DNA from: Nitrospirota bacterium
GTDB taxonomy: Bacteria > Nitrospirota > UBA9217
Assembly (NCBI GenBank): GCA_963663225.1
Contig: OY760142.1
Coordinates: 800,001-864,000, forward strand
Length of the DNA: 64,000 bases
Direction: 5' to 3'
The position numbers and the translations under genes are program-made. Below are positions 4,054 through 17,177 of this stretch, piece after piece; within the stretch, counting starts at the first letter, position 1, and each line of letters starts with the position of its first letter. The notes under the pieces were generated by a model. The model was not told the origin of the DNA, did no database searches, and was given only the letters and a program-made list of their open reading frames with translations.

Positions 4054-4707
4054 CTACTGCCTCGCGGCAACGCCGTTCTGAATCGTTTTTGCGATTGTTT
4101 CCGTGTTCGTCTCTCGCACAGCCAGCAGCATGTTTTTTTTCTCATAGTACCCGATCAAGGGGGATGTCTTCTCATTGTAGACATCCAGACGCTTTGTAAT
4201 CGCTTCTACCGTTTCATCTGCGCGCTGAATCACCGGGCTGCCGCATTTCCGGCAGGTGTCGTTCGGTCCCGGAGGATTGCTTTTTACGTTATAAATTTCC
4301 TGGCACGAAGGATTCGAACAAGTCCTGCGTGTCGTCAGCCGGTCGAGGATCACTTCGCGCGGCACGTCAAGGTTTACCGCCAGATCGAGCCTGATGTTCA
4401 GTTTTTTCAGCAGAGCATCAAGCGCCTCCGCCTGTGGAATGGTTCTGGGAAATCCATCGAGCAGAAATCCCTTCTCTACGTCCTTTTCCCGAAGCCTCTG
4501 CTCCATAATTCCCATGATAAGCGAGTCAGGAACGAGGTCTCCCCGGTCAATATAACCTTGGGCTTCCTTGCCGAGCGGGGTCCCGGCCTTTACCGCACCA
4601 CGAAGAATATCTCCGGTAGATATCTGCACGGAACCGTCCAGTCTCGTCAAAACTTTTGCCACCGTACCTTTTCCTGCGCCCGGGGCGCCTAACAAAATAA
4701 TTCTCAT
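4054..4707 (-). CDS. adk: adenylate kinase with Cys4 zinc LID
   Basis: GAPGAGKGT, STGDILR, LDGFPRT, QRADE; LID CSNPSC...CRKC. Confidence 0.97.
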   Translation of the reverse strand: MRIILLGAPGAGKGTVAKVLTRLDGSVQISTGDILRGAVKAGTPLGKEAQGYIDRGDLVPDSLIMGIMEQRLREKDVEKGFLLDGFPRTIPQAEALDALLKKLNIRLDLAVNLDVPREVILDRLTTRRTCSNPSCQEIYNVKSNPPGPNDTCRKCGSPVIQRADETVEAITKRLDVYNEKTSPLIGYYEKKNMLLAVRETNTETIAKTIQNGVAARQ

Positions 4708-4852: not shown

Positions 4853-5866
4853 TCACAGCAGCGGAAAATGACAGGCAACCTGGTGTGCATCAGTTATGTC
4901 GCGGAGTCGCGGTTCGCTTGCGGGATCCGCGCAGATTTCAGGCCTGCCCTTAGACTCATAAACCGGGCACCGGGGCGCGAACCGGCATCCGGTGAGTGGC
5001 CGTTCAAAATCGAACACACCCCAGTTTTTTCCCTGTGCCGGCGGGAAAGCACGGGTAGCTTCTTTGCTCTGTTTTTCAACAAGAGAAGACCACAGCACAC
5101 GCGTATACGGATGGCAGGGTTTGCCTGCGACGCGGCCGGTGAGGCCCATCTCCACGATCTTTCCCAGATACATGACCCCGACTTTGTGGCTGACAAGTTC
5201 GACCACGCGCAGATCGTGCGAAATGAACAGATAGGAAAGATGCAGCTGTTTCTGAAGGTCCCGAAGCAGATTGACAACCTGCGCCTGGATCGACACATCA
5301 AGAGCGCTCGTGGGTTCGTCGGCGACGATCATCCGCGCCCCCACGGACAGGACACGCGCAACTCCTACGCGCCGTTTTTCACCGCCGGAAAGCTCGTGCG
5401 GGAAATTCGAAAGCTTGCTCTTTTTTAGATTCACCTGCTCGAGCAGTTCACTGATGCGCCTGTCCAGTTCAGCACCGCCCGCCTGGTGATGAAGCGTAAT
5501 GGCTTCTTTCAGAATGTCGCGAATGCGCATCTTGGGATTCAGCGCCGCATCCAGGTCCTGAAAGATCATCTGCATTTGTCCCCGCAGTTGACGGACTTCT
5601 TCATGCGGCATCTGGGTGATATCCCTGCCGTCAAAAATGATACGGCCCGCCGTAGCCGGTGTGAGTCTCAGAATGGTCCTGCCGATCGTGGTTTTTCCAC
5701 AGCCGGACTCTCCTACAAGCCCCATTGTTTCATTTTCCTTAAGATAAAAGCTGACCCCGTCCACAGCAGGAATGGACGGCATATTTTCTTTCAGAACAGA
5801 AAAAAAGCCTTTATGATGGGCAAAATGCTTTTTCAGGTCGATGACTTCAAGAATTGTTTTTGTCAT
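4853..5866 (-). CDS. peptide/nickel ABC transporter ATPase (OppF/DppF-like)
   Basis: GESGCGKT, LSGGEKRR, VADEPTSALD, C-terminal GCRFAPRC...VACH. Confidence 0.92.
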   Translation of the reverse strand: MTKTILEVIDLKKHFAHHKGFFSVLKENMPSIPAVDGVSFYLKENETMGLVGESGCGKTTIGRTILRLTPATAGRIIFDGRDITQMPHEEVRQLRGQMQMIFQDLDAALNPKMRIRDILKEAITLHHQAGGAELDRRISELLEQVNLKKSKLSNFPHELSGGEKRRVGVARVLSVGARMIVADEPTSALDVSIQAQVVNLLRDLQKQLHLSYLFISHDLRVVELVSHKVGVMYLGKIVEMGLTGRVAGKPCHPYTRVLWSSLVEKQSKEATRAFPPAQGKNWGVFDFERPLTGCRFAPRCPVYESKGRPEICADPASEPRLRDITDAHQVACHFPLL

Positions 5867-5949
5867 GATATCGTCTTCCCGGATGAACAGCGCAGCATCT
5901 CAAGGAAAGAAATCACCTCTGCCTCTGCCAGCGCACGCCCCGATGTCGC

Positions 5950-7065
5950 TCAGCACGCGACTTCTTGAAAATACAACCAGCACCGTACCCGGTGACCGGG
6001 TGAGATTTCCCGCAGTTCCGGTTCGCTCATCATGCAACGTTCTTTGACCGAAGACGTCATGCGTGCGCACCGTCCATAGAACCGGCAGCCTTGCGGGATA
6101 TTGATGGTATCAAGAACATCGCCTTCAATCGCCTGCAGCCGCCCTTGTTCGCTCATATGCTCTCCGGAGGGAACGGAAGCGAGGAGCGCCTGAGTGTACG
6201 GATGCTTTGACGAAAATGAAGGGGCAAGCACGTCTCCGGCAGGACCGGACTCGACAACCGTCCCTCCATACATGACCGCAACGCTGTCTGAAAGCCGCGC
6301 AATAACGCTGATGTCATGGCTGATGAGCATGGTCGTTATTCCTAATTCCGCTTTGAGTTCCGCCAGCAGATCAACGATCTTGGACTGGATCGTGGCGTCC
6401 AGCCCTGTCGTGGGTTCGTCAGCAATCAATAGCGCCGGTTCGCAGGCAAGCGCCATGGCAATCATGGCACGCTGGCACATGCCTCCCGAAAGGCCAAAGG
6501 GATAGTTGTCAAAGCGGAGGCAGGGAGAGTCTATCTTCACCCGTTCAAGCCAGTACAGCGTCCGTTCCTTCGCTTCTTTTCCGTTTTTCAAGGCCGTGTG
6601 CAAAAGGATAGATTCCGCGATCTGCTTTCCTACCGGTGTGAATGGATTCAGCGAGGACTTGGGGTTCTGAAAAATCATGGCGATTTCCTTGCCGCGTATC
6701 ATGTGCATGGAACGCTCAACGTTCTTGTTCCACCCTCTGTGGTCCTTGCTCACGGTCATGATTTTGTCATTATTTTTCGTGAGCGTAACGTAGCCGGCAA
6801 GGTCCTGAAGCAGGTTCTTCCGGATGTCGCGAGCTTTGAAGCCGATCTTGCCGCTGATTACCCCCGGCCCCGCGCTGATCAAGCCCATGACGGACAGCGC
6901 TGTTATGCTCTTGCCGCTGCCGCTCTCTCCCACCACGCCGAGCGTTTCACCCGGGGCAATTTCCAAACTCACACCGTCTACGGACCTGACAAATGCCCTT
7001 TTGCTGCGCGAGTAAAAATAGGTGCGCAGGTCTTCTATTTTGAGAAGCGGAGAGGCGCTCGTCAT
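5950..7065 (-). CDS. peptide/nickel ABC transporter ATPase (OppD/DppD-like)
   Basis: GESGSGKS, LSGGMCQR, IADEPTTGLD, GCRFYGRC; ATG 7065 overlaps the permease stop (ATGA). Confidence 0.92.
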   Translation of the reverse strand: MTSASPLLKIEDLRTYFYSRSKRAFVRSVDGVSLEIAPGETLGVVGESGSGKSITALSVMGLISAGPGVISGKIGFKARDIRKNLLQDLAGYVTLTKNNDKIMTVSKDHRGWNKNVERSMHMIRGKEIAMIFQNPKSSLNPFTPVGKQIAESILLHTALKNGKEAKERTLYWLERVKIDSPCLRFDNYPFGLSGGMCQRAMIAMALACEPALLIADEPTTGLDATIQSKIVDLLAELKAELGITTMLISHDISVIARLSDSVAVMYGGTVVESGPAGDVLAPSFSSKHPYTQALLASVPSGEHMSEQGRLQAIEGDVLDTINIPQGCRFYGRCARMTSSVKERCMMSEPELREISPGHRVRCWLYFQEVAC

Positions 7066-7958
7066 GTTCCCCTCTTTTTGCCCTCGAGCATGTTGTTCAA
7101 ACCGTCGCCGAGCAGATGAAATCCGAGAATGGTGAATAAAATCGCGAGCGCGGGGGCCGTGGAGGGCCAGAACTTCCCCTGCATAAAATAATTTGCTCCG
7201 GCCTGCACCATGTTCCCCCATGACGGTGCAGGCTCCTGCACGCCGAATCCGAGATAGCTGAGGGAGGTCTCCATTAAAATCGCCTCGCCCATGCCCAGGG
7301 TCGCCTGGATAATCAAAATCGTCCGGCAGTTATGCCATAGAATGTGTTTCAGAATAATTGTCCTAAGCGGCAGCCCCAGCGCGGTGTCGGCTTCGATAAA
7401 GTTTTTTTGTTTCAGAAAAAGGATTTTGCCTTTGACAAGCGATGCAACAACCGGCACGTTCGTAAGTCCTACCACGATCATGATGTAGTAAATGTTCGGT
7501 TTGAACGCCGCAATTACCAGCAGAATCAACACGAGACGGGGAAAAGAATCCACCAGATTGATGAAGTAGGTTATGATGGTGTCGACAGCTCCACGGCGAT
7601 ATCCTGCAAGCACGCCAAACACGGTACCGAGCAGCAGCGCGATAAAAACCGCAAGCAGGCCCGGCAGAAAATACGCCTGAATGCCCACGATCATGCGCGA
7701 AAGAATGTCGCGTCCCAAAAAATCCGTGCCCAGCACATGCCCCCCGACGCCCGGCGGCGCCATCATAAGGGCAAGATCAATGTCATTCGGATCATACGGC
7801 AGAAGATGAAGAGATCCCAGAACATAAGAACCCAGGACAACGATGATGATGAACAGGCCGTACGCTACGTATGCGAGGTCAACGGGCTCCGCTCTTTTCC
7901 AGAACGGCAGGTCCGAAAATTCGCTGATTTCGCCGGATATTTGGGAATATGTTTTCAT
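7062..7958 (-). CDS. peptide ABC transporter permease (OppC-like)
   Basis: HVLGTDFLGRD, ETSLSYLGFG, PSWG, LLGDGL. Confidence 0.92.
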   Translation of the reverse strand: MKTYSQISGEISEFSDLPFWKRAEPVDLAYVAYGLFIIIVVLGSYVLGSLHLLPYDPNDIDLALMMAPPGVGGHVLGTDFLGRDILSRMIVGIQAYFLPGLLAVFIALLLGTVFGVLAGYRRGAVDTIITYFINLVDSFPRLVLILLVIAAFKPNIYYIMIVVGLTNVPVVASLVKGKILFLKQKNFIEADTALGLPLRTIILKHILWHNCRTILIIQATLGMGEAILMETSLSYLGFGVQEPAPSWGNMVQAGANYFMQGKFWPSTAPALAILFTILGFHLLGDGLNNMLEGKKRGT

Positions 7959-8035
7959 ACGAGTCAATTCTAGCTATTCAAAAAAAGTGTGCACTTTTTT
8001 TTACAGCCAGGTCATTTTTACAGGTATCCGGGTCG

Positions 8036-9001
8036 TCATTCTTTCGATGCCCGCGGATTTACCGCCACATAAACCAGCCGCTGAAACAAGCCTCCCAGAC
8101 GCACGAAAATGGCTGCCAGAATCGCAATGCCCATGATGACAGGATAGTCGCGGTCCTGTGCGGCCTGCCACGCCATTCTCCCCATGCCCGGCCAGTTAAA
8201 CACCTGTTCGACGATAACGGCACCGCCGAGAATAAAAGGAATTTTGGAAGCAATGATCTCGGTGACCGGAATAAGCAGGCCTTCCTTGAAAAAATGCTTC
8301 CATACCGCCGCGCCTTTTGCCTTGGCCGTGCGGAGGTAGTCTTCTGCCAGAACCCGTTCCATCTCAGCACGTAAAAAACGGATTACTTCGCTTATCGTGC
8401 CGTTGCCGACGCCGAGAACAAAAATCGGCAGCAGCAGATAAAGCCATTTGAAATGCTGCGGCGTACTCGAAAATCCGAAGGCAAGCGGAAACAGCCCCAG
8501 TTTGTGCATGAAAAAATAGATGACGATATACCCAAGCCAGAATACCGGAATTGCGGAAACAATATAGGCAGCCATCGTGAGGGGCCAGGAAATTTTTGTT
8601 GTTCCGCGCATGGCAGAGTAAACCGCAATGGGCGCTGCGATCAAGAGCGTAACGAGCAGGGAGCCGAGAGTAAGAACAAGCGTGTTCCATCCGACGCGCA
8701 GCACCTCGGAAAGCACCGGCAGGCCTGTCCGGATGGATGTTCCGAAATTGCCGTGCAGCATTTCCATGAACCAGGAAAAATACTGCGCATACCACGATTT
8801 CGGAACTCCTAACGCTTCACGCACACCCGCGCGCGCCTCCGCTGAGTAAAGCTGTCCTTCGAGGAGAAGACTAAACGGGTCTCCCGGAGAAAGATACAGA
8901 ATGATAAAAACCACAAAACTCACCCCAAGGAGCAGGACCGCTGTAATCGCCAGCTCTTTTGACAGCACAAGGGCTATAGGCCGGACCGCTGATAGCTTCA
9001 T
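8036..9001 (-). CDS. peptide ABC transporter permease (OppB-like)
   Basis: PGDP, GNFGTS, DYLRTAKAKG, EQVFNWPGMG, RDYP. Confidence 0.92.
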   Translation of the reverse strand: MKLSAVRPIALVLSKELAITAVLLLGVSFVVFIILYLSPGDPFSLLLEGQLYSAEARAGVREALGVPKSWYAQYFSWFMEMLHGNFGTSIRTGLPVLSEVLRVGWNTLVLTLGSLLVTLLIAAPIAVYSAMRGTTKISWPLTMAAYIVSAIPVFWLGYIVIYFFMHKLGLFPLAFGFSSTPQHFKWLYLLLPIFVLGVGNGTISEVIRFLRAEMERVLAEDYLRTAKAKGAAVWKHFFKEGLLIPVTEIIASKIPFILGGAVIVEQVFNWPGMGRMAWQAAQDRDYPVIMGIAILAAIFVRLGGLFQRLVYVAVNPRASKE

Positions 9002-9081
9002 GCTTTTCTATGCTCCTTACGCCTCCACTAAATCAGATCATGGTTCTTTCTCTCAAACCTGCCGAGACGGCACCGGCTAAT

Positions 9082-9180
9082 CAGTACTGATCATCCTCCT
9101 TTGTATATGCCGGGAAAGGGTTGTGCCCTCTCTTCAGTGCGAAGAGAGGGCACAGGGGGAGGGAGGATGAAGCCGTACTG
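9082..9180. repeat. nested inverted repeat (long stem-loop) between the SBP and permease genes
   Basis: Perfect 14-bp stem 9122-9135/9141-9154, flanked by tcatcctcc/ggaggatga (9091-9099/9162-9170) and cagtac/gtactg (9082-9087/9175-9180). Confidence 0.8.
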
Positions 9181-9199
9181 CAAGTTCTCTGTATAAAAT

Positions 9200-10816
9200 C
9201 TACTTCTGGTCCTTTTCCGCAATAAACCATTCATCCGCAAAGGAGAAAAACTTGTACGGGTGTATGGCAACATGCCGCACCTTATTGTGGTACGCCGCAT
9301 AATTCGTAAGCGTCCAGAGGAAGGTATAGGTGTTTTCGTCGGCAAGAATGGAATGAAGCCGCCGGTTGATCGTCCTCCGCTTCTCATGATCGAGGGTAAG
9401 TTTGCTCTCGTTGATCAGGCCGTCAACCTCCGGATTGGAGTACCCGATGAAATTGTTTTTCCACGGGCCAATTTCTCCGGAATGGAACAGCGACGAGATG
9501 TCCGCGGAATCATCAAAAACCCAGGAAGCAAAAACAATGTCGAAGTCATGCTCCAGGAACACGTCCTCCTTCCATGCCTGCCATTCCTTGAATCCCACCT
9601 GGACATCAACGCCGATGTTTTTAAGGTAATTTCTGAAGGCAAGCACTACCCGTTTCACTGCTTCGCTCTCTTTCTCAATCGGGACTTTCAGCGTCAAGAC
9701 AAGTTTTTTCCCGTCTTTCTGCATGATCCCGTCCGGACCGGGAGCAAACCCTGCTTCCCGGAGAAGCGATTTCGCCTTTTCAGGATTGAAGGGAAACGGC
9801 TGTACTTCAAGGTTGTATGCCCAGCTGCCGGGCGCAAAGGGACCGGAAATGATTGTCCCCTGGCCGTTGAAAAATGAATCGAGCATTTCCTGCCTGTTCA
9901 CTGCATACGTAAAGGCCTGCCGGACGCGTTTGTCCGCGAGCAGTTGGTTCCGGACATTGTAGCCGAAAAACGAATACGAAAGCGCATTGTACGGTTGCAG
10001 AACAAAACGCTTATCGCCCTGTACCTCGGGAATATCGCGGGGATTCACCAGTACGATCATGTCGATGGCATTGAACATGAGGGCCTGGGTCATGATATTC
10101 TGGTCCGCAAACGGCTTTGCAATAAACTTGTCGAGGTGCGGCCGTCCCTTGAAATAATTGTCGTTCGCCACAAGTATGATTTCCCGGTCCGGCGTAATGT
10201 TCTTGAGAATATACGGCCCGGTGCCGATAGGGTGCTGGACAAAGGGGTCTTCCCTCGTGAGGAAAACAGGGTTGGCCGGTCCATGCCGGGGTATTATTTT
10301 GAAGCTGAATTTGGCAAGCGCATTCAGGATCGGCCGCTTCAGAGTAAAACGGACCGTGTAATCATCCAGCTTTTCGACGGTATCGATGAACTCATACCGG
10401 ACCTTGAGCGGCGTGATGGTCCTCGGATGCATCATGATTTTATAGGTAAAAATCACGTCGTCCGCGCTGAACGCTCTTGGCTCTTCTCCATCGCGTGCAT
10501 GCCAGGTCACTCCTTTCCGGAGAGCAAAAGTATAGGTGCGTCCGTCTTTTGACTGTTCCCACCGTTCGGCAAGCTCCGGGACAATTTCCTGTTTTTCATT
10601 GATGCCGACCAGACCGTTGAAAACCAGCTCGGTGATGCGCAAGGAAATCATTTCATTGCTCGTGACGGGATCAAGTGTGGCAGGCCGCCCGTATTCACCG
10701 TAGCTCAGCATGCCGCCATCAGGCCTGTTGTCTTTTTTACGAGCTGCGTCTGCAAATGGCGCAGCCACAAGAGACACCACAACCAGCAAAAGCACAACAA
10801 TAGGAATTCTTTTCAT
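9200..10816 (-). CDS. periplasmic substrate-binding protein, family 5 (OppA/DppA/AppA-like)
   Basis: Signal peptide MKRIPIVV...ADA; TLDP, PELAERWE, PIGTGPY, NYFKG, YSNPEVD motifs; AGGAGG RBS. Confidence 0.93.
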   Translation of the reverse strand: MKRIPIVVLLLVVVSLVAAPFADAARKKDNRPDGGMLSYGEYGRPATLDPVTSNEMISLRITELVFNGLVGINEKQEIVPELAERWEQSKDGRTYTFALRKGVTWHARDGEEPRAFSADDVIFTYKIMMHPRTITPLKVRYEFIDTVEKLDDYTVRFTLKRPILNALAKFSFKIIPRHGPANPVFLTREDPFVQHPIGTGPYILKNITPDREIILVANDNYFKGRPHLDKFIAKPFADQNIMTQALMFNAIDMIVLVNPRDIPEVQGDKRFVLQPYNALSYSFFGYNVRNQLLADKRVRQAFTYAVNRQEMLDSFFNGQGTIISGPFAPGSWAYNLEVQPFPFNPEKAKSLLREAGFAPGPDGIMQKDGKKLVLTLKVPIEKESEAVKRVVLAFRNYLKNIGVDVQVGFKEWQAWKEDVFLEHDFDIVFASWVFDDSADISSLFHSGEIGPWKNNFIGYSNPEVDGLINESKLTLDHEKRRTINRRLHSILADENTYTFLWTLTNYAAYHNKVRHVAIHPYKFFSFADEWFIAEKDQK

Positions 10817-10888
10817 AGGTCCTCCTTGCCATATCCGGGTTTGCAACGCATGTGATGTGTGCGGCCGCAAACCAAAATCCGTTCTGCG

Positions 10889-12376
10889 TTAAAAAATTTT
10901 TACATCTCCTGCGCTCTGCTGTTCTATTGCATATACACCCTGCATTGCTTCCTGTATCTGCCGGACGGCGGGAAACTGTTTGCTCATCTCGAAATAAATC
11001 TCGATTGCCTCTGAAAATTTTTTGCTCCGGTAATACAGTCCGGCCAGATCCGCAAGCATCAGCGGGTCGTTCGACTCAATCTTGTTCTTGTTGCTTTTAT
11101 CCCTGCCCATTTCCATGGAGAACAAAGCCTTTCCCCGGTTTTTCTTCGCAAGAGCGTATCTGCCGAGCCCGAAGTGCAGGATGGAAAACTTTTTGCCCTG
11201 ACCGGCCGCGGCGATGGATTCCGCGCGCTTCGAAACTGCACCGCATTCTGCTTTTGCCCGCGCACAGGCAAACAGTATCTCTCCCAGAAGGTCCGGGTCT
11301 GCCGGCTGCTTCTGCGAAAGACCGGTCCATACCTTCAATGCTCCGGCCTGATTGCCTTGCAGATATTCATGCGCCGCCTGCTGTGCCCGTATCCGGTCCT
11401 TATAATGCTGCGACATGCGCGAGGTAGCGATAAAAGATGCTGCAACCTCAGCCGACTGTTCTTCGCTCCCTGCAAAAGAATACGCGGCGGCAAGATAGTA
11501 TTCAGCCGCGTCTTTTACCGCTCCGTTGGCGGCGGCTTTTTCGAGCGAAGCTATGCTTGCCTGGCCATAGAGAACCGACATGGCATCGAGAAGTCCGGGA
11601 TCGTAAAAAAAGAGGACTTTCAATTTTCCGAGCACCTCTTTGTGAGAAGGCTCCTTTCCATCAACGCGTCTGAGCAGTGCAAGCCCCTTGTCGATCAGTC
11701 CTGCTTCGTTGTAAACAGACAGACAGTTCTTCACCATCCGGACCAGCGCCGGTTTCCCGGTTTTCTTTACGTCTGCAAGGCTGCCGTCGCACAAGGCAAC
11801 GGGGTCTTTCTCTGCAAAGTTAATTCTGCTGTACGCTGCGGCAAGCTCGGACCGTACTTCCGGGGAGGCGGAATCTATGCCGTTCCAGATGCGCTCCGCT
11901 TCCTGCCCGTTGTCGTTCAGGTAATGGCAGAGGCCCAGATTCACTTCAGCGATCGAACGATGCAACTGACTGATTTTTTTGTCGGCAATGAATCGTTCCA
12001 GAAAGGACACAGCATCAGCAGGTTTTTCCGACTCGATAAGCAGCTGCCCTCTATACAGGTCCGCGAAGCGGCTTCTGGCCGACCCTTTTGACGCGGACAG
12101 TTTTTTGAGATAATCCTGCGTCGCGGCAAGCGATTCTTCGTAGAACGCCCGGTACAGTTCGGCGTTTTTCAGGTAGATCATGCCGAGGGTCAGGTTCGCC
12201 GCCCCCTGCCGGGACGGATCAAGTGAAGTAATCTCTGTTCGAAGATTCAAAGCTGCGTCTTCATAATGCCGCTGTTCATAAAGCTTCATCGCACGCGCAA
12301 CTGCGTCGTCGGCGGCGGCAGGTACGGCTGACGGAATGCTCAGAAAGAGTATGATGGAAAAAAGAATTCGCTTCAT
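10889..12376 (-). CDS. exported TPR-repeat protein
   Basis: Sec signal peptide; helical A/L/Y/G-patterned repeats (ANLTLGMIYLK, AEVNLGLCHYL, AEYYLAAAY, LADLAGLYY). Confidence 0.75.
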   Translation of the reverse strand: MKRILFSIILFLSIPSAVPAAADDAVARAMKLYEQRHYEDAALNLRTEITSLDPSRQGAANLTLGMIYLKNAELYRAFYEESLAATQDYLKKLSASKGSARSRFADLYRGQLLIESEKPADAVSFLERFIADKKISQLHRSIAEVNLGLCHYLNDNGQEAERIWNGIDSASPEVRSELAAAYSRINFAEKDPVALCDGSLADVKKTGKPALVRMVKNCLSVYNEAGLIDKGLALLRRVDGKEPSHKEVLGKLKVLFFYDPGLLDAMSVLYGQASIASLEKAAANGAVKDAAEYYLAAAYSFAGSEEQSAEVAASFIATSRMSQHYKDRIRAQQAAHEYLQGNQAGALKVWTGLSQKQPADPDLLGEILFACARAKAECGAVSKRAESIAAAGQGKKFSILHFGLGRYALAKKNRGKALFSMEMGRDKSNKNKIESNDPLMLADLAGLYYRSKKFSEAIEIYFEMSKQFPAVRQIQEAMQGVYAIEQQSAGDVKIF

Positions 12377-12412
12377 CGGATGTCCTTGCCAAACGGTGCA
12401 GATTTTTCACCG

Positions 12413-13729
12413 TTATTGCTTCAGTTTCATGAGAAAAATCTGGTCCCATTGATTGACCTGGGCGCGATATGCTATCACGCCGTCTGAAGAGCAGGTGATA
12501 TCATGGTTCATTTTGGTGCCCGTTTTTACCAGACGGCTCGTCTTCTCTTTGATGTTCACGATATAGATGGGATTGAATCCGACCCGGTCGTTTTTTACGT
12601 ATACAATTTGCGCGCTGTCAGGCATCCACGCGGGCCCGCGTTCCACGTCAGGAATAATGTCCTGGGCGACCACTTTTGCGGCAAGCCCGTCTCCTGCAGG
12701 AGAATCTGACCCGTCGGCAGCAATAACCATCAGGGACCATATCTTGGGGTCTCCGGCAGGATTGACATTTGAGTAAAACGCTATCTTCTTCCCGTCAGGC
12801 GACCACATCGGCCGCAAGTCGTCGTAGGTCCACGTGGTGAGCGCTTTCAGCGTCTCAACAGGTTTGGTCACGTCGCCGATCAGATAGATGTCATGGTTTT
12901 CATTGCTGCCGTGCATCACAGCGATTCTTTTTCCGTCCGGGGACCATTGCGGGTAGAGATACGGTTTTCCTCCCCTGGTCAGCCGTGTCAGCCCGCGGGT
13001 TGCGGTATCCAGAAGATACACATCGCCCTTGCCGGTTCTGCCTGATACGAAAACGATTGAATCAGCAACCGGCGACCAGTGCGCATGGCCGTTTTTCTCC
13101 TTGTGATTGGTAAGCCGGGTTGTTGTCGCCGTCGGCATGCTGCTGATGTCCTTCAAATAAAGATCGTAATTCCCCTCGCCGCCGTTGCTCATAAAAACAA
13201 CACGGTTTCCCTGCGGAGACCACGAAAGACCTGCGTTATAACTCACTTCCTCATAGACACCTGGGAAAAAGAACTTTTCTTCCCTGCGGTTTTCGGATAG
13301 CTGGAAATAAAGGGTCTGAACTATTGATCCGTCGGGACGGGCGATAATAATCTCTTTTTTATCGCCGCTGCTCCGTTCAAACGCAATCAGGGTTCCCTGC
13401 CGGGACCATACCGGATTTGAATCATTTCTCCCTGTTTCAATCTGAACAAGCGGTTTCACAAAAAGCGGTTCAATAATTGCGTTCGTGCGTTCTTCCGTGT
13501 TATCCCCTGTCGCTGTAGGGCGGGACTCAACAGCAGAATCCGGGCCCAACCGCGCCGCATCTTCGACGTCCTGGTCTTCCGCCTCCTGCTCAGTGAATTC
13601 GGTTTCCGATGGAGCTGCCGGCAGGTCTCCGCCGGCGACCGCCCGTAAGCCTCCCAGAAGAAACATCACCGCAAACAAAAGACAATGGTATCGGGTTGCT
13701 GTTTTCACCAAAGCGTCTCCCGCAATCAA
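12413..13729 (-). CDS. TolB-like beta-propeller (PD40 repeats), exported
   Basis: Repeated PxWSPDGxxIAF motifs (PVWSRQG, SWSPQG, HWSPVAD, PQWSPDG, PMWSPDG, PAWMPDS); hydrophobic signal segment then acidic linker; start uncertain. Confidence 0.85.
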   Translation of the reverse strand: MIAGDALVKTATRYHCLLFAVMFLLGGLRAVAGGDLPAAPSETEFTEQEAEDQDVEDAARLGPDSAVESRPTATGDNTEERTNAIIEPLFVKPLVQIETGRNDSNPVWSRQGTLIAFERSSGDKKEIIIARPDGSIVQTLYFQLSENRREEKFFFPGVYEEVSYNAGLSWSPQGNRVVFMSNGGEGNYDLYLKDISSMPTATTTRLTNHKEKNGHAHWSPVADSIVFVSGRTGKGDVYLLDTATRGLTRLTRGGKPYLYPQWSPDGKRIAVMHGSNENHDIYLIGDVTKPVETLKALTTWTYDDLRPMWSPDGKKIAFYSNVNPAGDPKIWSLMVIAADGSDSPAGDGLAAKVVAQDIIPDVERGPAWMPDSAQIVYVKNDRVGFNPIYIVNIKEKTSRLVKTGTKMNHDITCSSDGVIAYRAQVNQWDQIFLMKLKQ

Positions 13730-16296
13730 AGATTTTTAATCTGCTCCCAATATTTCTGCGCCGTATCCCGGCTTTGCTCGAACGTACTGTTTCCCTCCAG
13801 CTTTTTCGGGAAAAAGTCAAAGTACTCCCGCCAGGCAAGGTTAGCACTGTTCAGCAACGCCGGTTTCCGGGTCATCAGATAGAGTTTGTGGTATGACAGC
13901 GCAAGATAGTAATAGGTATCATGCACGGCCTCGTCATACTGGATATTCGGAAAAAATCTTGTGTTCTGTTTTGCCGTCTGAAGATGCTGGATCGCTTTTC
14001 CGAAGGCCTGTGCCGCTGCATCCCTATTGGTTTGAACGAGCCCGCTTCCCTTTTCATAGTACGCGTGTCCCAGGTTCGTGTAAGTCACCGCATACTGTTT
14101 ATACAGAAGTTCCCGGTTCTCGGGCAGTGAAAGCACATTTTCAAATTCACGGATCGCGCCATCGTAATCACCTTTCTGATCGAGGTAAATCTGTGCCAGG
14201 CGGCTGTGGGCCTGGGAATAATCCGGATGCCCTTTTTCCGTGCTCTGGTAAGCACGGACCGCCCCCTCCACATCACCCTTTTGTTCCGCCCGCTCGCCGA
14301 TCTTCAGGTAATCTTTTTGCAAAACAATCCGCCGGTCACCTGTCCTGTTTTCTTCTTTTTGGGCAAACTCGATGATCTCTTCCCAATCACGGTAATCACC
14401 ACCGGCAGAAATTCTGACCGTATGGAATCCGAGTCCCACAAGTTTTCCTGCGCTGAGAGGCGTGGTACCGATTTTTTCTCCGTCAATGTATACGTCCGCG
14501 GAAGACGGCTGGGACTCTACTTTGAACAGCGAATTGTTCACCTGTAGAACATATTCTTTCAAATCCTTGTTCTTTTCTATTTTGACCTGGCCCTTGATCT
14601 GCTGATAACCATGCCGGTACAGAATAATATCGTATTTTTTCCCCACGCGGATCGGGATCTCTGCTCTGCCGTCAGCACCCGTGGAGCCAACCCATTCCTC
14701 ATTCAGGTAAACGTTCACACCACCCAGAGGGGCCACATCCGGAGAAACACCGCCTTTGGCAGACAGAACAAAGTAATTCTGCGCCGCTTCCTGCTCTTCC
14801 CGGTAAATGCGCCTGACCACCCGGTCTCCAATGGCAATTTTTTCATCTTTTCTCAGGTCCTCAACTTCAACCCAGGCCCCCGAGTCTTCCGCCTTCTTTA
14901 CTCTGATCTTTCCGATATCACGATAGCTCGATATCTTGCCGCTTTCATCAAACCGGGGGGTCATGAGCGAAAATTCCATCCCCCTGCTGATCCGGTAGCC
15001 CTGTTTTCCAAGATTGATGCGATAGCGGTCTTCTTCCTTCGACAGCACAGTCCCTTCAAAGGGAAACCGCTCCATGATATTCGTTGCGATCTCTTTCGCC
15101 GCGCCATTGATATCACCGGCACCTGATGCCCTGTTCAGCTGACTCAGAATCAATTTTCCCCCGGATGTATAAAACTTCGTTTCTATGAGAAACCCTTTGT
15201 CATCCTTTGCCACACTGCCCATGATAATCATGTCAACGGTTCTGCGAAGCGGAGTGTCGCGCCATCCCTTTGTAGTCGCTTTTTCGATCCCAAGTTTTGC
15301 CTGTTTCATTTCAGTCTGCAGTGTTTTCGTCGGCACTTCTCTAAAACAGGCGTTTTTGAATATCTGATTTGCCACGGAATGCTCCGTCTGCACAAGAATA
15401 TCTTTCATATCCGCTCCGGGAGTATTGCCTACAAAGCGGTAGATCCCGGCCCTGATCGGCTTGGGCTTCGTCGGGTAGAAATAGCGCGGGAGAGCCACCT
15501 CGCCTTCGAGCGTAATGCTCCCCTTCCAAGTGGCGGGAATATATCCGGGCGCGGACATCTGAATCTGGGCTTTCTTGCCGGGTTCTCCATTATATGTATA
15601 TACAAGGACTCCCTTGGAATCCGTACTGCCTGCGGACTTGTTGTCAATGCTGACGGCAACGCCGGGGATGCCGCTCGACAGCCCATACTCCTCCATCAGC
15701 GCGCTGATGGTAACCTGAACGCGCCTGGCAAGTGCCACTTCAAGCCTCTGGCCCGGCTCTGTTCTGCTTGTTTTGCGCCAGGTGGAATATCCCGACTTCG
15801 AAACCGTGATGTCCAATCCTGCTTTCGGCATTTCCTTATACTCGTAGATGAACTCACCTTTTGCGTCCGTTTTTCCCTGTTCCTTTCCTGATGCCGCAAC
15901 GGCTGCATCCTTCACGGGCGCGCCTTTTTCCGTAACAACGATCGTAATGTATCGCGTGGCTTCGAGATCTGCGTCAAAGGAATATTTGTCTACGGTCCCT
16001 TCTTTGGGCAGTTTCATAAGAAACGTGGTTTTCCAGGGCTTGACCCGGTATCCGGGCATTTCCTTGACCACGGCTACTTCTACTTCGGCCCCCGGTTTCT
16101 TTTTTATTATTTTGGAAAAATTACCGTTCGAATCGGCAAGACCTTCTTCCTTGCCGTCGACAGTTATTCTTGCTTGCGCCGCAGGCTGGCCGTCCAGACG
16201 GGCCTTTACCTGCAGATCGAGCTTTTCCCCGGCGCAGCCGAACAGCAGAACTGACGCCATAATAATTAGGCTTGAGCAAATAATGCGTTTTGCCAT
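13726..16296 (-). CDS. large multidomain lipoprotein (Ig/prealbumin-like repeats, CsgG/FlgT-like module, PEGA, TPR)
   Basis: Lipobox LLFG|C; repeated GxTDxxGxF beta modules; PEGA motif VESQPSSADVYIDGEKIGTTP; C-terminal TPRs. Confidence 0.8.
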   Translation of the reverse strand: MAKRIICSSLIIMASVLLFGCAGEKLDLQVKARLDGQPAAQARITVDGKEEGLADSNGNFSKIIKKKPGAEVEVAVVKEMPGYRVKPWKTTFLMKLPKEGTVDKYSFDADLEATRYITIVVTEKGAPVKDAAVAASGKEQGKTDAKGEFIYEYKEMPKAGLDITVSKSGYSTWRKTSRTEPGQRLEVALARRVQVTISALMEEYGLSSGIPGVAVSIDNKSAGSTDSKGVLVYTYNGEPGKKAQIQMSAPGYIPATWKGSITLEGEVALPRYFYPTKPKPIRAGIYRFVGNTPGADMKDILVQTEHSVANQIFKNACFREVPTKTLQTEMKQAKLGIEKATTKGWRDTPLRRTVDMIIMGSVAKDDKGFLIETKFYTSGGKLILSQLNRASGAGDINGAAKEIATNIMERFPFEGTVLSKEEDRYRINLGKQGYRISRGMEFSLMTPRFDESGKISSYRDIGKIRVKKAEDSGAWVEVEDLRKDEKIAIGDRVVRRIYREEQEAAQNYFVLSAKGGVSPDVAPLGGVNVYLNEEWVGSTGADGRAEIPIRVGKKYDIILYRHGYQQIKGQVKIEKNKDLKEYVLQVNNSLFKVESQPSSADVYIDGEKIGTTPLSAGKLVGLGFHTVRISAGGDYRDWEEIIEFAQKEENRTGDRRIVLQKDYLKIGERAEQKGDVEGAVRAYQSTEKGHPDYSQAHSRLAQIYLDQKGDYDGAIREFENVLSLPENRELLYKQYAVTYTNLGHAYYEKGSGLVQTNRDAAAQAFGKAIQHLQTAKQNTRFFPNIQYDEAVHDTYYYLALSYHKLYLMTRKPALLNSANLAWREYFDFFPKKLEGNSTFEQSRDTAQKYWEQIKNL

Positions 16297-16409
16297 AATC
16301 AGAGACCTCCTTGAAAACCACCGGATACGCTCGGCATTCGTCTTGCGAAAAAACTATCGCGTTCTATCAAAGTACCTGCGTTAAGCAGAAAACATGTGAA
16401 AAAGGCTGC

Positions 16410-16859
16410 TTACATCGTTGGGGGCTGGATGTTTACCTCGCCGGGATTTACAATTTTGTCTTCATCGGATTTTGAACCTTCTATGCTTTTCCGTTTCCCT
16501 TCAGCGATTTTCTTTATTTTAAATTCCACCTTCTTGCCGCCGAATCTTCCTACTTCCACGGACCGTGTTTCAGTCATATAGCCGATCCTGCTCGCTTCCA
16601 CCTTGTATACTCCCGGAATAATAAAGTCCTTCAGAGACTCAAACTTGCCTTCTGCGTCCACGACAACGGCCTGCGATGCCTTTTCGAGCGTGGTCGTGGT
16701 GTTGATCATGTTCACAACAGATCCCTGCGGACTTTCCTTGGCAGGAGGAATAGGTTGCAGGTTTGCGTCCACAAGCTCGACCGTTCCATATATTTTCGGT
16801 GCACAGGCACCCAGCGTGATCCCCAGAACCGCCAGTAAAATATACTTTGTGCATTTCAT
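16410..16859 (-). CDS. small lipoprotein with carboxypeptidase-regulatory-like (prealbumin) domain
   Basis: Lipobox TLGA|C; VDAEGKF...PGVYKVEASRIGY motif; AGGAGG RBS. Confidence 0.8.
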   Translation of the reverse strand: MKCTKYILLAVLGITLGACAPKIYGTVELVDANLQPIPPAKESPQGSVVNMINTTTTLEKASQAVVVDAEGKFESLKDFIIPGVYKVEASRIGYMTETRSVEVGRFGGKKVEFKIKKIAEGKRKSIEGSKSDEDKIVNPGEVNIQPPTM

Positions 16860-16936
16860 ATTCCCGCCTCCTCCTGACCCGTGCGTAAGATTCATTCTTT
16901 GATTCTAATACCGAAGCAACTTGCTGCCGCAATCGC

Positions 16937-16979
16937 AAAAAAAAAACCGCCAAAGAGAACAGATTATGTTCTTTGGCGG
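16937..16979 (-). terminator. intrinsic terminator forming the riboswitch expression platform
   Basis: Minus strand CCGCCAAAG-AACAUAAUCUGUUCU-CUUUGGCGG followed by U10; its 5' arm overlaps the aptamer P1 3' strand. Confidence 0.9.
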
Positions 16980-17107
16980 CTCGACTAGCATATAAAACAA
17001 TTACTGCGACTCTGCTGATGCTTTTGGTGTACGACAAGTCGCCGGTGTTTTAGTTAGCTTCGTGGCTCTGCGCCCTCCGGTTTCCCGGGGTTTGCTCTGA
17101 GCAAAGA
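16970..17107 (-). ncRNA. GEMM-I (c-di-GMP-I class) riboswitch, A20 variant, predicted 3',3'-cGAMP sensor
   Basis: Minus strand UCUUUG-CUCAG-A-GCAAACC-CCGG-GAAA-CCGG-AGGGCGC-AGAGCCACGAAGCUAA...AUGCUAGUCGAGCCGC-CAAAGA. Shows P1, P2 with GAAA tetraloop, CUAA/AUG receptor in P3, A47, C92 and A at position 20 (nt 17096). Confidence 0.88.
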
Positions 17108-17148
17108 CGTATTATTTATGAATCGTGTTTCTACGTCCAATTTATTGC

Positions 17149-17177
17149 AATCTAACATGTCATCTGTCCCTTGTCAA
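17149..17177 (-). promoter_or_regulatory. sigma70 promoter of the riboswitch-led operon
   Basis: TTGACA-17 bp-TAGATT with TG extension, about 40 nt upstream of the aptamer. Confidence 0.75.

Follow-up and report, generated by a model that had tools for sequence, protein, structure and literature searches.

A periplasmic TPR protein that binds a substrate-binding protein (SBP) has been described for the TPAT system of Treponema pallidum (TatT, TatPT and TatQM), in which, according to the account in that report, the cleft of the SBP faces the TPR protein, and the latter has been proposed to supply the SBP with cargo from the side of the outer membrane (PMC5812351). On the regulatory side, replacement of G20 by A is reported to define the cGAMP-binding GEMM-Ib riboswitches, and G20A variants are described there as able to bind both cGAMP and c-di-GMP (PMC6140456). 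The leader of pgcA has been described as a terminator-based ON switch (PMC6456294). Here we report on a gene cassette that is located in a stretch of 64,000 nucleotides from a Nitrospirota bacterium (contig OY760142.1, positions 800,001 to 864,000; referred to as the window) and in which a peptide-type ABC importer is combined with four scaffold proteins of the envelope. As no described counterpart was found, the cassette looks like an unstudied envelope machine.

Organization of the gene cassette

The cassette spans positions 17177..4853 on the minus strand of the window. A promoter-like site comes first, followed by a GEMM-I riboswitch that a terminator overlaps and then by nine co-oriented genes (Table 1). 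According to the ORF calls and to Pfam and NCBIfam, these encode two lipoproteins (g1 and g2), a TolB-like propeller (g3), a TPR solenoid (g4), a family-5 SBP (g5), two permeases (g6 and g7) and two ATPases (g8 and g9). Both the layout and the protein types had been proposed earlier from the letters of the DNA (the sequence-only reading) and proved correct, as did two overlapping junctions: the stop codon of g2 overlaps the TTG start codon of g3 by 4 nt, and an overlap of the same size is read from the sequence for the g7 stop and the g8 start, if g8 begins at the ATG at 7065. The promoter-like site lies ~40 nt upstream of the aptamer, the 3' end of which is overlapped by the 5' arm of the terminator. 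The first gene product carries a lipobox, matches CarboxypepD_reg weakly (Pfam) and forms one Ig-like sandwich; its homologues are mostly 149 aa long. The hairpin in the spacer behind the SBP gene may serve mRNA stability or attenuation. In agreement with the sequence-only reading, neither Pfam nor NCBIfam revealed a porin or TonB-receptor family in the nine proteins, and among the nine genes a cargo-related enzyme or an outer-membrane entry route was likewise not found with these models. The neighbours of the cassette are adk, a gene for a K+ channel and unrelated genes.

Table 1. Features of the cassette, with positions counted from the first letter of the window and listed in the direction of transcription.
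Feature	Position	Strand	Details
Promoter, sigma-70-like	17177..17149	-	TTGACA-17-TAGATT with TG extension, 10/12 matches; consensus match only
GEMM-I (c-di-GMP-I, RF01051) aptamer	17106..16972	-	48.5 bits vs gathering 35; model positions 1-87 of 87
Intrinsic terminator	16981..16937	-	12-bp stem 16981..16947, then ten T 16946..16937
g1, small lipoprotein	16859..16410	-	149 aa from ATG behind GGAGGAGG; ORF open from 16895
g2, lipoprotein	16296..13726	-	856 aa; lipobox, CarboxypepD_reg, PEGA, TPR (Pfam)
g3, exported PD40 beta-propeller, TolB-like paralogue	13729..12413	-	PD40 repeats; Pfam and NCBIfam
g4, exported all-alpha TPR solenoid	12376..10889	-	Weak TPR matches (Pfam); model
g5, periplasmic family-5 SBP	10816..9200	-	SBP_bac_5 E 1e-87; 538 aa from ATG at 10816; ORF open from 10870
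Hairpin, 14-bp, without U run	9154..9122	-	In 198-nt spacer after SBP gene
g6, OppB/DppB-type permease	9001..8036	-	BPD_transp_1; Pfam and NCBIfam
g7, OppC/DppC-type permease	7967..7062	-	BPD_transp_1; Pfam and NCBIfam
g8, OppD/DppD-type ATPase	7065..5950	-	ABC_tran and C-terminal oligo_HPY; likely start 7065, ORF open from 7221
g9, OppF/DppF-type ATPase	5866..4853	-	ABC_tran and C-terminal oligo_HPY

Distribution and conservation

The cassette is real, and uncultured bacteria from several phyla retain it intact. All nine genes occur in the order seen in the window in 41 of 78 related loci, and the remaining loci end at a contig edge, save two with an insertion. Since the same order recurs in 78 independent loci without a single violation, the arrangement is far beyond chance. 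When the count is restricted to loci with contig room for the gene in question, g1 is present in 64/64, g2 in 78/78, g3 in 77/77, g4 in 68/68, g5 in 61/61, g6 in 57/57, g7 in 51/53, g8 in 49/49 and g9 in 47/47 cases, with median intergenic gaps of 19-95 nt. Separate occurrence of the accessory and the ABC genes in other genomes had been named as an outcome that would speak against a joint system; across the 78 loci they always co-occur where there is room. The most widely shared flanking gene family is common to at most eight loci, so the cassette appears self-contained.

The labels of the host metagenome-assembled genomes comprise Nitrospirota, Thermodesulfobacteriota, Rokubacteria, Burkholderiales, Acidiferrobacterales and others. 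This spread is genuine, because the GC content of g2 (0.46 to 0.69 over the loci) follows that of the host and the taxon labels cluster on the g2 tree (8 changes vs a shuffled mean of 31.9). Occurrence is patchy, with 50 of 301 genomes of the phylum containing the cassette. For an ABC system, the order of conservation is inverted: median identity is highest for the SBP (80%), followed by the permeases (75 and 78%), the ATPases (67 and 73%) and the accessory proteins (g1 65%, g3 64%, g2 60%, g4 48%).

The importer and its predicted contact with the TPR protein

By sequence, the importer belongs to the Opp/Dpp class and is of the peptide type. The complete gene set of this class (PepT) is present, i.e., a family-5 SBP, two BPD_transp_1 permeases and two oligo_HPY ATPases (Pfam). 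The solved proteins closest to g5 are AppA (1xoc, E 3e-66) and DppA, while MppA is a weaker match (E 5e-27). The named NCBIfam equivalogs tested (OppA, DppA, NikA, GsiB, SapA and others) all remain below their cut-offs, the best being Opp4A with 220 vs 650, DppA with 172 vs 1005 and NikA with 160 vs 393. Over 16 sequences from several phyla, g5 has a mean column identity of 85%, and the stretch from W432 to D436 is invariant. In the alignment, an Asp three residues after the conserved Trp (W-V-F-D) corresponds to D408 of DppA, which follows W405 at the same distance and which we take to be the residue that binds the alpha-amino group of the ligand (D419 in OppA). The g5 clade is isolated: among 1.84 billion representatives, a single full-length one lies at 75%, and the next follow at 50, 45 and 41%.

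The model of g4 is of high quality (pLDDT 91, pTM 0.89) and retrieves generic TPR matches only in structure comparison; a solved relative was not found by sequence either, the best hit (E 0.004) being again a generic TPR match. When g4 and the SBP were modelled together, as had been suggested for the TPR-SBP pair, a strong complex was predicted, with a median ipSAE of 0.85 vs 0.01 for the best of three controls. In the calibration, 116 of 157 solved complexes and 2 of 215 mismatched pairs attained the mark passed by this pair; these counts apply here only roughly because the alignments for g4 and the SBP were custom-made. Because sequence comparison finds no solved relative for g4, the prediction does not reproduce a memorised structure. 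The runs share at least 91% of their contacts, the partner has a pLDDT of at least 88, and 15 of the 36 invariant g4 columns fall into the predicted interface (3.8 expected). The list of touching residues includes the g4 tail (residues 482-495) and the cleft motif of the SBP (residues 430-440), which would place the tail at the ligand cleft. The tail reads S-A-G-D-V-K-I-F in the window, and the motif S-[AP]-G-D-[VA]-[KR]-[IV]-[NFL] forms the exact C terminus of 60/60 g4 homologues. Being C-terminal, the tail has no free amino terminus and thus cannot bind in the manner of a normal Opp/Dpp ligand.

Folds of the accessory proteins

The large lipoprotein g2 (model pLDDT 83.9) begins with three Ig-like sandwiches (residues 24-272), which are followed by an alpha/beta domain resembling TolB-N (279-413) and by a barrel (414-495). 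Two PEGA sandwiches come next (508-645), and residues 663-855 form a TPR domain. Residues 279-413 of the model superimpose on TolB (4pwz) with Z 12.4 and an rmsd of 2.7 over 117 aligned residues. Foldseek relates the model to FlgT (3w1e, E 3.9e-9) and to the LPHT ring (8z5n, E 5.3e-9), consistent with the alpha/beta plus barrel fold of FlgT; the TM-scores of these matches are low, since normalisation is to all 856 residues of the model. A language-model search placed the middle of g2 near clusters of CsgG, FlgO, FlgT_C and LpoB (0.87-0.92), which we treat as leads only, and the Pfam models of the FlgT, CsgG, FlgO and LpoB families did not match g2. The propeller g3 scores 133.3 bits on the TolB model TIGR02800, below the cut-off of 343.15, and the true TolB of the genome (384 bits) is encoded elsewhere. 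By the +2 sorting rule of E. coli, which may not hold in Nitrospirota, g1 and g2 would reside in the outer membrane. All four accessory proteins have scaffold-type folds, either soluble or anchored by lipid, and nothing points to a channel; for the capture or channel assembly envisaged earlier, the channel is not supported.

The riboswitch and links to cyclic dinucleotides

The aptamer contains an insertion of ~50 nt in P2 and has an A at the position of G20 in Vc2 (model position 11). It is conserved in 21 related loci, in which this A (A15 of the window row) is invariant (21/21). Compensatory changes on both sides occur in 9 of the 37 predicted pairs in these 21 sequences, and the consensus stem of the terminator (RNAalifold) is kept in 20/21 relatives. 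With A in place of G20, the riboswitch may sense 3'3'-cGAMP, c-di-GMP or both. The idea that a GEMM leader is a shared property of the system did not hold: the riboswitch precedes the cassette in 22 of 77 loci, essentially a Nitrospirota-type clade, and other lineages use other leaders. Cyclic dinucleotides are linked to the cassette independently of the riboswitch, as a GGDEF cyclase gene is located directly upstream on the same strand in six Nitrospirota loci and in six Burkholderiales-type loci; where cyclase genes adjoin the cassette in relatives, they encode the canonical Asp type. The genome of the window encodes 13 full GGDEF domains, among which no clear Hypr enzyme (Ser/Thr at position 348 together with GGDEF) was found. 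Twelve have Asp at this position; the remaining one (GAF-GGDEF, L102) has Ser but GGEEF, a combination reported as inactive (PMC6456294).

Discussion

We consider it somewhat better than an even bet that the cassette is one self-contained unit in which an SBP-dependent ABC importer of the Opp/Dpp class works together with a periplasmic scaffold of four proteins, hung from the outer membrane and made up of the lipoproteins g1 and g2, the TolB-like propeller g3 and the TPR solenoid g4. In the predicted complex, g4 would clamp the SBP over its ligand cleft and reach the cleft motif with its invariant C-terminal tail, which would make the SBP a subunit held in place and not a freely moving shuttle. 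Most likely, such an assembly would receive cargo on the outer-membrane side, a peptide-like compound with a free amino terminus, and deliver it by way of the SBP to the importer, in the manner in which the TPR protein TatT would serve the TPAT binding protein. This hand-over is suggested by analogy, since no cargo, outer-membrane entry route or enzyme is encoded. In the lineage of the window, transcription would be gated by the A20-type GEMM-I riboswitch: ligand binding should stabilise a closing helix between CUUUG and CAAAG, keep the terminator from using its 5' arm and thereby switch the operon ON. These two segments never vary, and the ON logic thus has no support from covariation. From the interpretation given by the sequence-only reading, the co-occurrence of the genes, the TPR-SBP pair and a composition without known match are retained, whereas the channel and the shared riboswitch are not.

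The same predicted contact can be read in another way. The ABC transporter may power an envelope machine or act as its sensor instead of taking up a nutrient, with the SBP as a permanent subunit and the g4 tail as its tethered pseudo-ligand. We hold this to be unlikely, even though conservation peaks on the periplasmic parts, with the SBP ahead of the ATPases as would fit a surface mostly buried in protein contacts, the invariant tail sits exactly at the C terminus and is predicted to touch the cleft motif, and neither a cargo-related enzyme nor an entry route is encoded. Tol-Pal-like parts also fit, namely the TolB-N-like domain of g2, the g3 propeller and TPR repeats comparable with those of YbgF (Z 12.3, the level of generic TPR proteins). 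The retained Asp for the peptide amino terminus speaks in favour of a genuine free ligand, cargo hand-over is served equally well by a docking tail, and no type-I SBP-dependent importer is known to act in this way. Cycling of the ATP-driven importer would, on such a scheme, move or signal through the outer-membrane-tethered scaffold as an ATP-powered analogue of Tol-Pal. That an Opp/Dpp-type ABC transporter came to serve a trans-envelope machine as its ATP-driven motor or sensor, with the SBP clamped by g4 and the g4 tail as pseudo-ligand, and spread between phyla as one cassette, is in our estimation quite unlikely; it would mean a Tol-Pal-like outer-membrane tether powered by ATP instead of the proton-motive force.

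Opp/Mpp importers take up murein tripeptide, a function that also appears in NCBIfam names, and the SBP might accordingly import murein peptides like MppA while the scaffold connects this import with the turnover of peptidoglycan at the outer membrane. The likeness of the g2 middle to TolB-N and FlgT, its leads to CsgG, FlgO and LpoB and the TolB-like nature of g3 are in keeping with such a role in cell-wall or envelope maintenance. We nevertheless regard it as decidedly improbable, given that MppA is a far weaker match than AppA or DppA, that Pfam detects no OmpA-like, LysM, SPOR or other peptidoglycan-binding family in g1-g4, that the genome has its own TolB and that the patchy presence in the phylum is unlike housekeeping.

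It is very unlikely that g1-g4, as a surface or adhesion module, and g5-g9, as an ordinary peptide importer, are independent of each other and merely have an operon and a regulator in common. GEMM riboswitches are often found ahead of surface proteins, the second GEMM-I of the genome precedes genes for a lipoprotein and a large exported protein, and surface proteins commonly contain PEGA and Ig-like domains; against this, the nine genes remain linked wherever a locus leaves room for them, in several phyla and under differing regulators, binding of g4 to the SBP is predicted with clean controls, and the SBP clade is nearly without relatives outside the cassette. Uptake of a metal or metallophore by a Nik, Cnt or Opp2-like nickel/cobalt importer, with the scaffold capturing the chelate, is hardly to be expected, because the best NCBIfam permease names, which include nickel Opp2B (223.7 bits) and Opp2C (196.9 bits), and the NikA-type matches of the SBP (E ~1e-47) all lie under the curated cut-offs, the peptide binders AppA and DppA are closer solved relatives, the Asp for the peptide amino group is conserved and the invariant columns of g1-g4 show no evident metal-binding motif.

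Comparison with known systems

With Tol-Pal (TolB, CpoB/YbgF and Pal), the cassette shares a TolB N-terminal-like domain, a PD40 propeller, TPR modules and small lipoproteins of the outer-membrane type; unlike there, what corresponds to TolB is divided between two proteins, the propeller stays below the TolB cut-off in a genome that has a true TolB elsewhere, and TolQ, TolR, TolA or an OmpA-like Pal were found neither among the nine proteins nor in the flanks. The resemblance of g2 to FlgT, the H-ring and the CsgG-FlgO-LpoB modules, seen in both the fold matches and the language-model clusters, concerns a module that is embedded between Ig-like and TPR domains, and no flagellar, curli or PBP genes were found near the cassette, neither in its flanks in the window nor in those of the related loci. 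The Geobacter GEMM-Ib regulons resemble the cassette in having a GEMM-I aptamer with A for G20 and envelope proteins downstream, and the cassette riboswitch is proposed to be a terminator-based ON switch like the pgcA leader; the differences are an ABC importer instead of cytochromes or pili, a Nitrospirota host and a genome in which no clear Hypr GGDEF was found.

In its SBP, permeases and ATPases, in AppA and DppA as nearest relatives and in the retained counterpart of D408, the cassette resembles Opp/Dpp/App (PepT) importers, from which it differs in lying under every NCBIfam equivalog cut-off, in an isolated SBP clade that is more conserved than the ATPases and in the constant linkage to four envelope proteins. 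In TPAT the SBP cleft faces the TPR protein, and in the cassette g4 is predicted to cover the SBP cleft; unlike TPAT, the cassette has an ATP-driven ABC importer instead of the TRAP-type DctQM, an SBP of family 5 instead of the DctP type, a TPR protein without specific likeness to any solved protein, three further accessory proteins and a predicted contact through a C-terminal tail rather than a pore. A characterised system of this composition was not found in the literature, in line with the sequence-only reading, and NCBIfam and Pfam yielded no family for g1 or g4.

A nine-gene cassette conserved across uncultured bacteria

ORF, Pfam, NCBIfam and Rfam analyses bore out in every particular the observation of the sequence-only reading that nine co-oriented genes, two of their junctions overlapping, lie behind one promoter, riboswitch and terminator; the overlaps, at g2/g3 and g7/g8, measure four bases each. 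That reading had also stated that the operon lacks a TonB receptor or porin, and Pfam and NCBIfam indeed assign none of the nine proteins to such a family.

Features of the cassette (window coordinates)
Feature	Coordinates	Strand	Remarks
Sigma-70-like promoter	17177..17149	minus	TTGACA, 17 nt, TAGATT; consensus match
Aptamer RF01051 (c-di-GMP-I)	17106..16972	minus	full-length, 48.5 bits (gathering 35)
Terminator, 12-bp hairpin, then ten T	16981..16947	minus	3' end of aptamer runs into hairpin
g1, small lipoprotein	16859..16410	minus	start behind GGAGGAGG site gives 149 aa, as in most homologues
g2, lipoprotein, 856 aa	16296..13726	minus	CarboxypepD_reg, PEGA, TPR (Pfam/NCBIfam)
g3, exported PD40 propeller, TolB-like	13729..12413	minus	133 bits, below TolB cut-off of 343
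g4, exported protein	12376..10889	minus	weak TPR matches only; no NCBIfam family
g5, family-5 binding protein (SBP)	10816..9200	minus	E 1e-87
g6, permease	9001..8036	minus	Pfam/NCBIfam
g7, permease	7967..7062	minus	Pfam/NCBIfam
g8, ATPase with oligo_HPY domain	7065..5950	minus	Pfam/NCBIfam
g9, ATPase with oligo_HPY domain	5866..4853	minus	Pfam/NCBIfam

The flanks of the window are unrelated to the cassette, with an adenylate kinase gene downstream and a divergent K+ channel gene upstream. The co-stranded adk (window 4054-4707, minus strand) follows the cassette at a distance of 146 nt and does so only here and in the closest relatives (loci L015, L016 and L018); no terminator-like site was found between g9 and adk, and read-through of the operon transcript into adk is possible. 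The 198-nt spacer after the SBP gene contains a strong hairpin of 14 bp that lacks a U run (window 9122-9154, minus strand), which may stabilize or attenuate the transcript such that SBP is made in excess of permease. The C termini of g8 (about 5950-6100) and g9 (about 4853-5000) carry a four-cysteine pattern in the oligo_HPY region, which we take to be reminiscent of Fe-S-binding OppD/OppF proteins.

Homologues of g2 of equal length number in the hundreds, at 67-79% identity. A scan of one genome per species yielded 78 loci, with at most 10 kb on each side, all from metagenome-assembled genomes, whose record titles name Nitrospirota, Thermodesulfobacteriota or 'delta proteobacterium', Rokubacteria, Burkholderiales or Betaproteobacteria, Acidiferrobacterales, Sulfurifustaceae, Gemmatimonadetes and Geobacteraceae. 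One locus, L052, is from a genome flagged as unpublished and underpins none of the conclusions. Gene presence was tallied from tblastn matches to the nine window proteins. The cassette is complete, in window order and on one strand in 41 of the 78 loci, and the order is violated in none. When only loci with sufficient contig room are counted, g1 is present in 64/64, g2 in 78/78, g3 in 77/77, g4 in 68/68, g5 in 61/61, g6 in 57/57, g7 in 51/53, g8 in 49/49 and g9 in 47/47. The accessory genes (g1-g4) and the ABC genes, whose coupling had been proposed from the sequence, thus occur together wherever the contig leaves room, the sole exception being g7 in L021 and L037, where foreign genes are inserted after g6. 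The cassette is a real and strongly conserved unit. Neighbouring genes are separated by median gaps of 19-95 nt, the figure for g7/g8 being an artefact of the start-codon rule, and no extra conserved neighbour such as a porin emerged, the commonest flanking family occurring in only 8 of the 78 loci.

The g6/g7 junction is an insertion hot spot in L021, L022, L030, L032, L033 and L037, where it houses PIN and Phd toxin-antitoxin genes (L037, L021), extra TPR proteins (L022, L037), a DUF5683-like ORF (L030) or one M24 Xaa-Pro-type peptidase (L032). These inserts differ between loci and do not belong to the system. The cassette of one Burkholderiales bin is immediately preceded by the end of a 23S rRNA gene together with a 5S rRNA gene (L064:1-624). 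Two runs labelled RNA-Seq are probably DNA; they cover, in short contigs, nothing but a relative that is about 95% alike.

The spread across phyla is real rather than a product of mis-binning. The GC content of g2 varies with the host group, between 0.46 and 0.69, and the submitters' phylum labels cluster on the g2 tree (8 changes versus a shuffled mean of 31.9). This tree (maximum likelihood, 66 proteins, quick search, SH-aLRT support only, midpoint root) has three main clades, a Desulfobacterales-type clade, Pseudomonadota plus Rokubacteria, and Nitrospirota, the last enclosing a group labelled Thermodesulfobacteriota. The labels of L028 ('Betaproteobacteria') and L060 ('Enterobacteriaceae') look wrong, as both are placed inside other groups. 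The phylum of the window itself shows a patchy distribution: of 301 genomes, 50 have a g4 match with an E of 1e-20 or better, namely 44 of 63 in family f1, 4 of 6 in f2, 1 of 5 in f13 and none in the other families sampled.

The riboswitch is largely confined to one clade

The sequence-only reading had proposed a search for a shared GEMM leader, which turned up in 22 of 77 loci. A regular expression found the aptamer conserved upstream of g1 in 21 of the 62 loci with enough upstream sequence, and a covariance model built from these recovered the same 21 plus a weak, degenerate copy in L030 (77 loci, L052 being left out). Carriers are the Nitrospirota-type clade and one Geobacteraceae bin, with no others; in a wider genome search, at least 12 genomes had the riboswitch a short distance upstream of the g2 gene. 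According to RNAalifold, the aptamer helices are kept, with compensatory changes in nine pairs, and so is the terminator. An invariant 5' CUUUG, whose invariance gives no covariation, can pair with CAAAG, the 5' arm of the terminator. Given this pairing option, ligand binding should block termination, and we infer that the riboswitch is an ON switch.

Every cassette riboswitch copy has an A at the position of Vc2 G20. According to the accessible part of PMC6140456, the G20 to A change defines cGAMP-binding GEMM-Ib, and G20A variants are able to bind both ligands. The one other GEMM-I of the window's genome (G000:C1:190726-190814, equivalent to L001:1501-1589; 62.4 bits) precedes genes for a small lipoprotein and a large exported protein and likewise has A at the G20 position, so that this Nitrospirota genome has GEMM-I of the A20 type only. 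Counted against cGAMP is the canonical Asp in 12 of the genome's 13 full GGDEF domains. The thirteenth belongs to a GAF-GGDEF protein (L102:847-2052; G000:C1, around 1947956-1948438) with Ser at Hypr position 348 and a GGEEF motif, a pairing described in the available portion of PMC6456294 as absent from natural enzymes and inactive in GacA. This atypical protein was the only candidate for a Hypr GGDEF found in the genome, and the riboswitch ligand may be cGAMP, c-di-GMP or both.

Directly upstream of the cassette and co-stranded with it, a canonical Asp-type Rec-GGDEF gene is present in six riboswitch-bearing Nitrospirota loci (L021, L032, L033, L037, L039, L044) and a canonical Asp-type Rec-GAF-GGDEF gene in six Burkholderiales-type loci (L060, L061, L062, L069, L074, L075). 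The two cyclase-bearing clades are unrelated to each other. The link to cyclic dinucleotides thus occurs twice independently, but the riboswitch is an add-on of one clade.

When RF01051 was searched over 30 genomes of motif-less loci, 10 genomes gave no match at all, and of the remaining 20, the four with loci compared by position (L023, L029, L041, L043) had no match at the operon. An Rfam E-value scan of eight motif-less loci returned rRNA only. The Burkholderiales-type loci L060-L063, L069, L074 and L075, and also L064 and L065, have a GC-rich leader 100-330 nt upstream of g1 that forms nested hairpins with some compensatory changes among closely related sequences; it had no Rfam match at E up to 1 in the two loci scanned (L063, L064) and could be an undescribed regulatory RNA. 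In a 'delta'-labelled subclade (L023, L029, L041, L043, L046), the place of the riboswitch, about 100-130 nt upstream of g1, is taken by a conserved TGGCAC/T-N5-TGCA, which resembles a sigma-54 promoter. A conserved TTGACAAAATTGCAA box lies further upstream in the same five loci.

The binding protein is the best conserved component

ABC importers that depend on an SBP are three-part systems, in which the ATPases are normally best conserved and the SBP usually least. Judged by sequence identity, this order is reversed in the cassette, with the SBP on top. Median identities to the window proteins, two near-identical loci being left out, are 80% for the SBP, 75% and 78% for the permeases g6 and g7, 67% and 73% for the ATPases g8 and g9, and 65%, 60%, 64% and 48% for the accessory proteins g1 to g4. 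Sixteen SBPs from several phyla share a mean column identity of 85%.

A profile-free search with the SBP against 1.84 billion 50%-identity representatives returned one full-length protein at 75% identity, the next ones at 50, 45 and 41% and, below these four, the usual 30-40% crowd. A single close representative followed by a gap indicates that the SBP belongs to an isolated clade, which, within the sampling, does not extend beyond the cassette. A search of metagenome contigs with P0122, a member of the next-nearest clade that is 50% identical to the SBP, yielded a single locus, weak and unrelated. Among solved structures, the oligopeptide binder AppA (1xoc, E 3e-66) and then DppA are closest; D408 of the latter, an Asp three residues after a conserved Trp, aligns with a W-V-F-D stretch that is invariant in the 16 cassette sequences. 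An Asp at this position presumably holds the amino terminus of the bound peptide.

Accessory protein folds and a predicted g4-SBP complex

The model of g2 (mean pLDDT 83.9, 29-row alignment) comprises three Ig-like sandwiches (24-272), an alpha/beta domain (279-413), a barrel (414-495), two PEGA sandwiches (508-645) and TPRs (663-855). Foldseek matched it to FlgT (3w1e, E 3.9e-9), the Vibrio LPHT ring (8z5n, E 5.3e-9) and TolB, and VIA-align superposed the TolB N-terminal domain on residues 279-413 (Z 12.4, rmsd 2.7, 117 residues aligned). In a language-model search, residues 275-500 came near CsgG, FlgO, FlgT_C and LpoB clusters (0.87-0.92), which serve as leads only. A genuine TolB is encoded elsewhere in the window's genome (384 bits), which makes g3 an additional paralogue. 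The model of g4 is a compact all-alpha solenoid (pLDDT 91.1, pTM 0.89, 32 rows) with generic TPR matches (TM about 0.3), no specific fold relative and no sequence relative in the PDB. Pfam and NCBIfam have no family for g1 or g4. None of g1-g4 is an enzyme or a membrane channel, and the capture-or-channel assembly suggested earlier loses its channel part.

A TPR-SBP contact had been put forward from the sequence alone, and modelling of this pair did predict a complex. Mature g4 and mature SBP, the only pair modelled, reached an ipSAE (predicted-interface confidence) of 0.85 as the median of three runs, versus 0.01 for the best of three controls, with author-supplied alignments. Of 157 solved complexes, 116 attain this mark, and so do 2 of 215 mismatched pairs, counts that are rough given our own alignments, and the score is a model confidence, not a measurement. 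Memory of a solved complex is an improbable source of this pass, as no relative of g4 has been solved. The runs have at least 91% of contacts in common, with partner pLDDT of at least 88.

In the model, g4 contributes a beta-hairpin (241-255), a loop (93-102) and, above all, residues 422-495, whereas the SBP contributes both lobes, including residues 430-440 with the ligand-site Trp and Asp. Invariant g4 columns are enriched at the interface (15 of 36 versus 3.8 expected), a figure that is not independent because the model saw the same alignment. Each of the last 14 g4 residues contacts the SBP in the predicted complex, and the same residues are disordered when g4 is modelled alone; the exact C terminus reads S-[AP]-G-D-[VA]-[KR]-[IV]-[NFL] in 60 of 60 homologues. 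From the touching residues rather than from inspected coordinates, we read g4 as capping the SBP cleft with its tail reaching in.

Interpretation and comparison with known systems

On balance, we lean towards an Opp/Dpp-class importer whose SBP would be held by an outer-membrane-tethered scaffold for the uptake of peptide-like cargo and which a cyclic dinucleotide would switch ON in Nitrospirota. The tail of g4 could also be a tethered pseudo-ligand, with the transporter acting as motor or sensor of the scaffold, which we consider improbable. If the g4-SBP prediction is true, the favoured importer would show a way in which diderms, lacking a TonB receptor for the purpose, can wire inner-membrane import to the outer membrane. 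The tail of g4 and the SBP make a simple candidate binding pair that is directly testable, and the A20-type GEMM-I riboswitch in Nitrospirota invites a test of cGAMP signalling beyond the known groups.

The cassette is apparently undescribed. In agreement with the sequence-only reading, which knew of no characterised system of this composition, no published description was found at the level of titles and abstracts of the papers listed; the accessible text of PMC8835794 makes no mention of ABC, peptide, TPR, lipoprotein or TolB. In soil, groundwater and sludge, uncultured members of several phyla have retained intact a nine-gene version of an importer in which, unlike in textbook importers, the SBP is the best conserved part and is predicted to be held by a TPR protein of its own. 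The accessory proteins resemble a re-cut periplasmic half of Tol-Pal, in which g2 has the N-domain of TolB, g3 its propeller, and TPR modules recall CpoB/YbgF; the cassette has neither TolQRA nor an OmpA-like Pal domain. The closest precedent is TPAT, where, according to the available part of PMC5812351, the TPR protein TatT binds the SBP TatPT, whose cleft is aligned to TatT, and is proposed to hand cargo over to it. If the predicted complex is true, the cassette would be the ABC counterpart of this rare arrangement.
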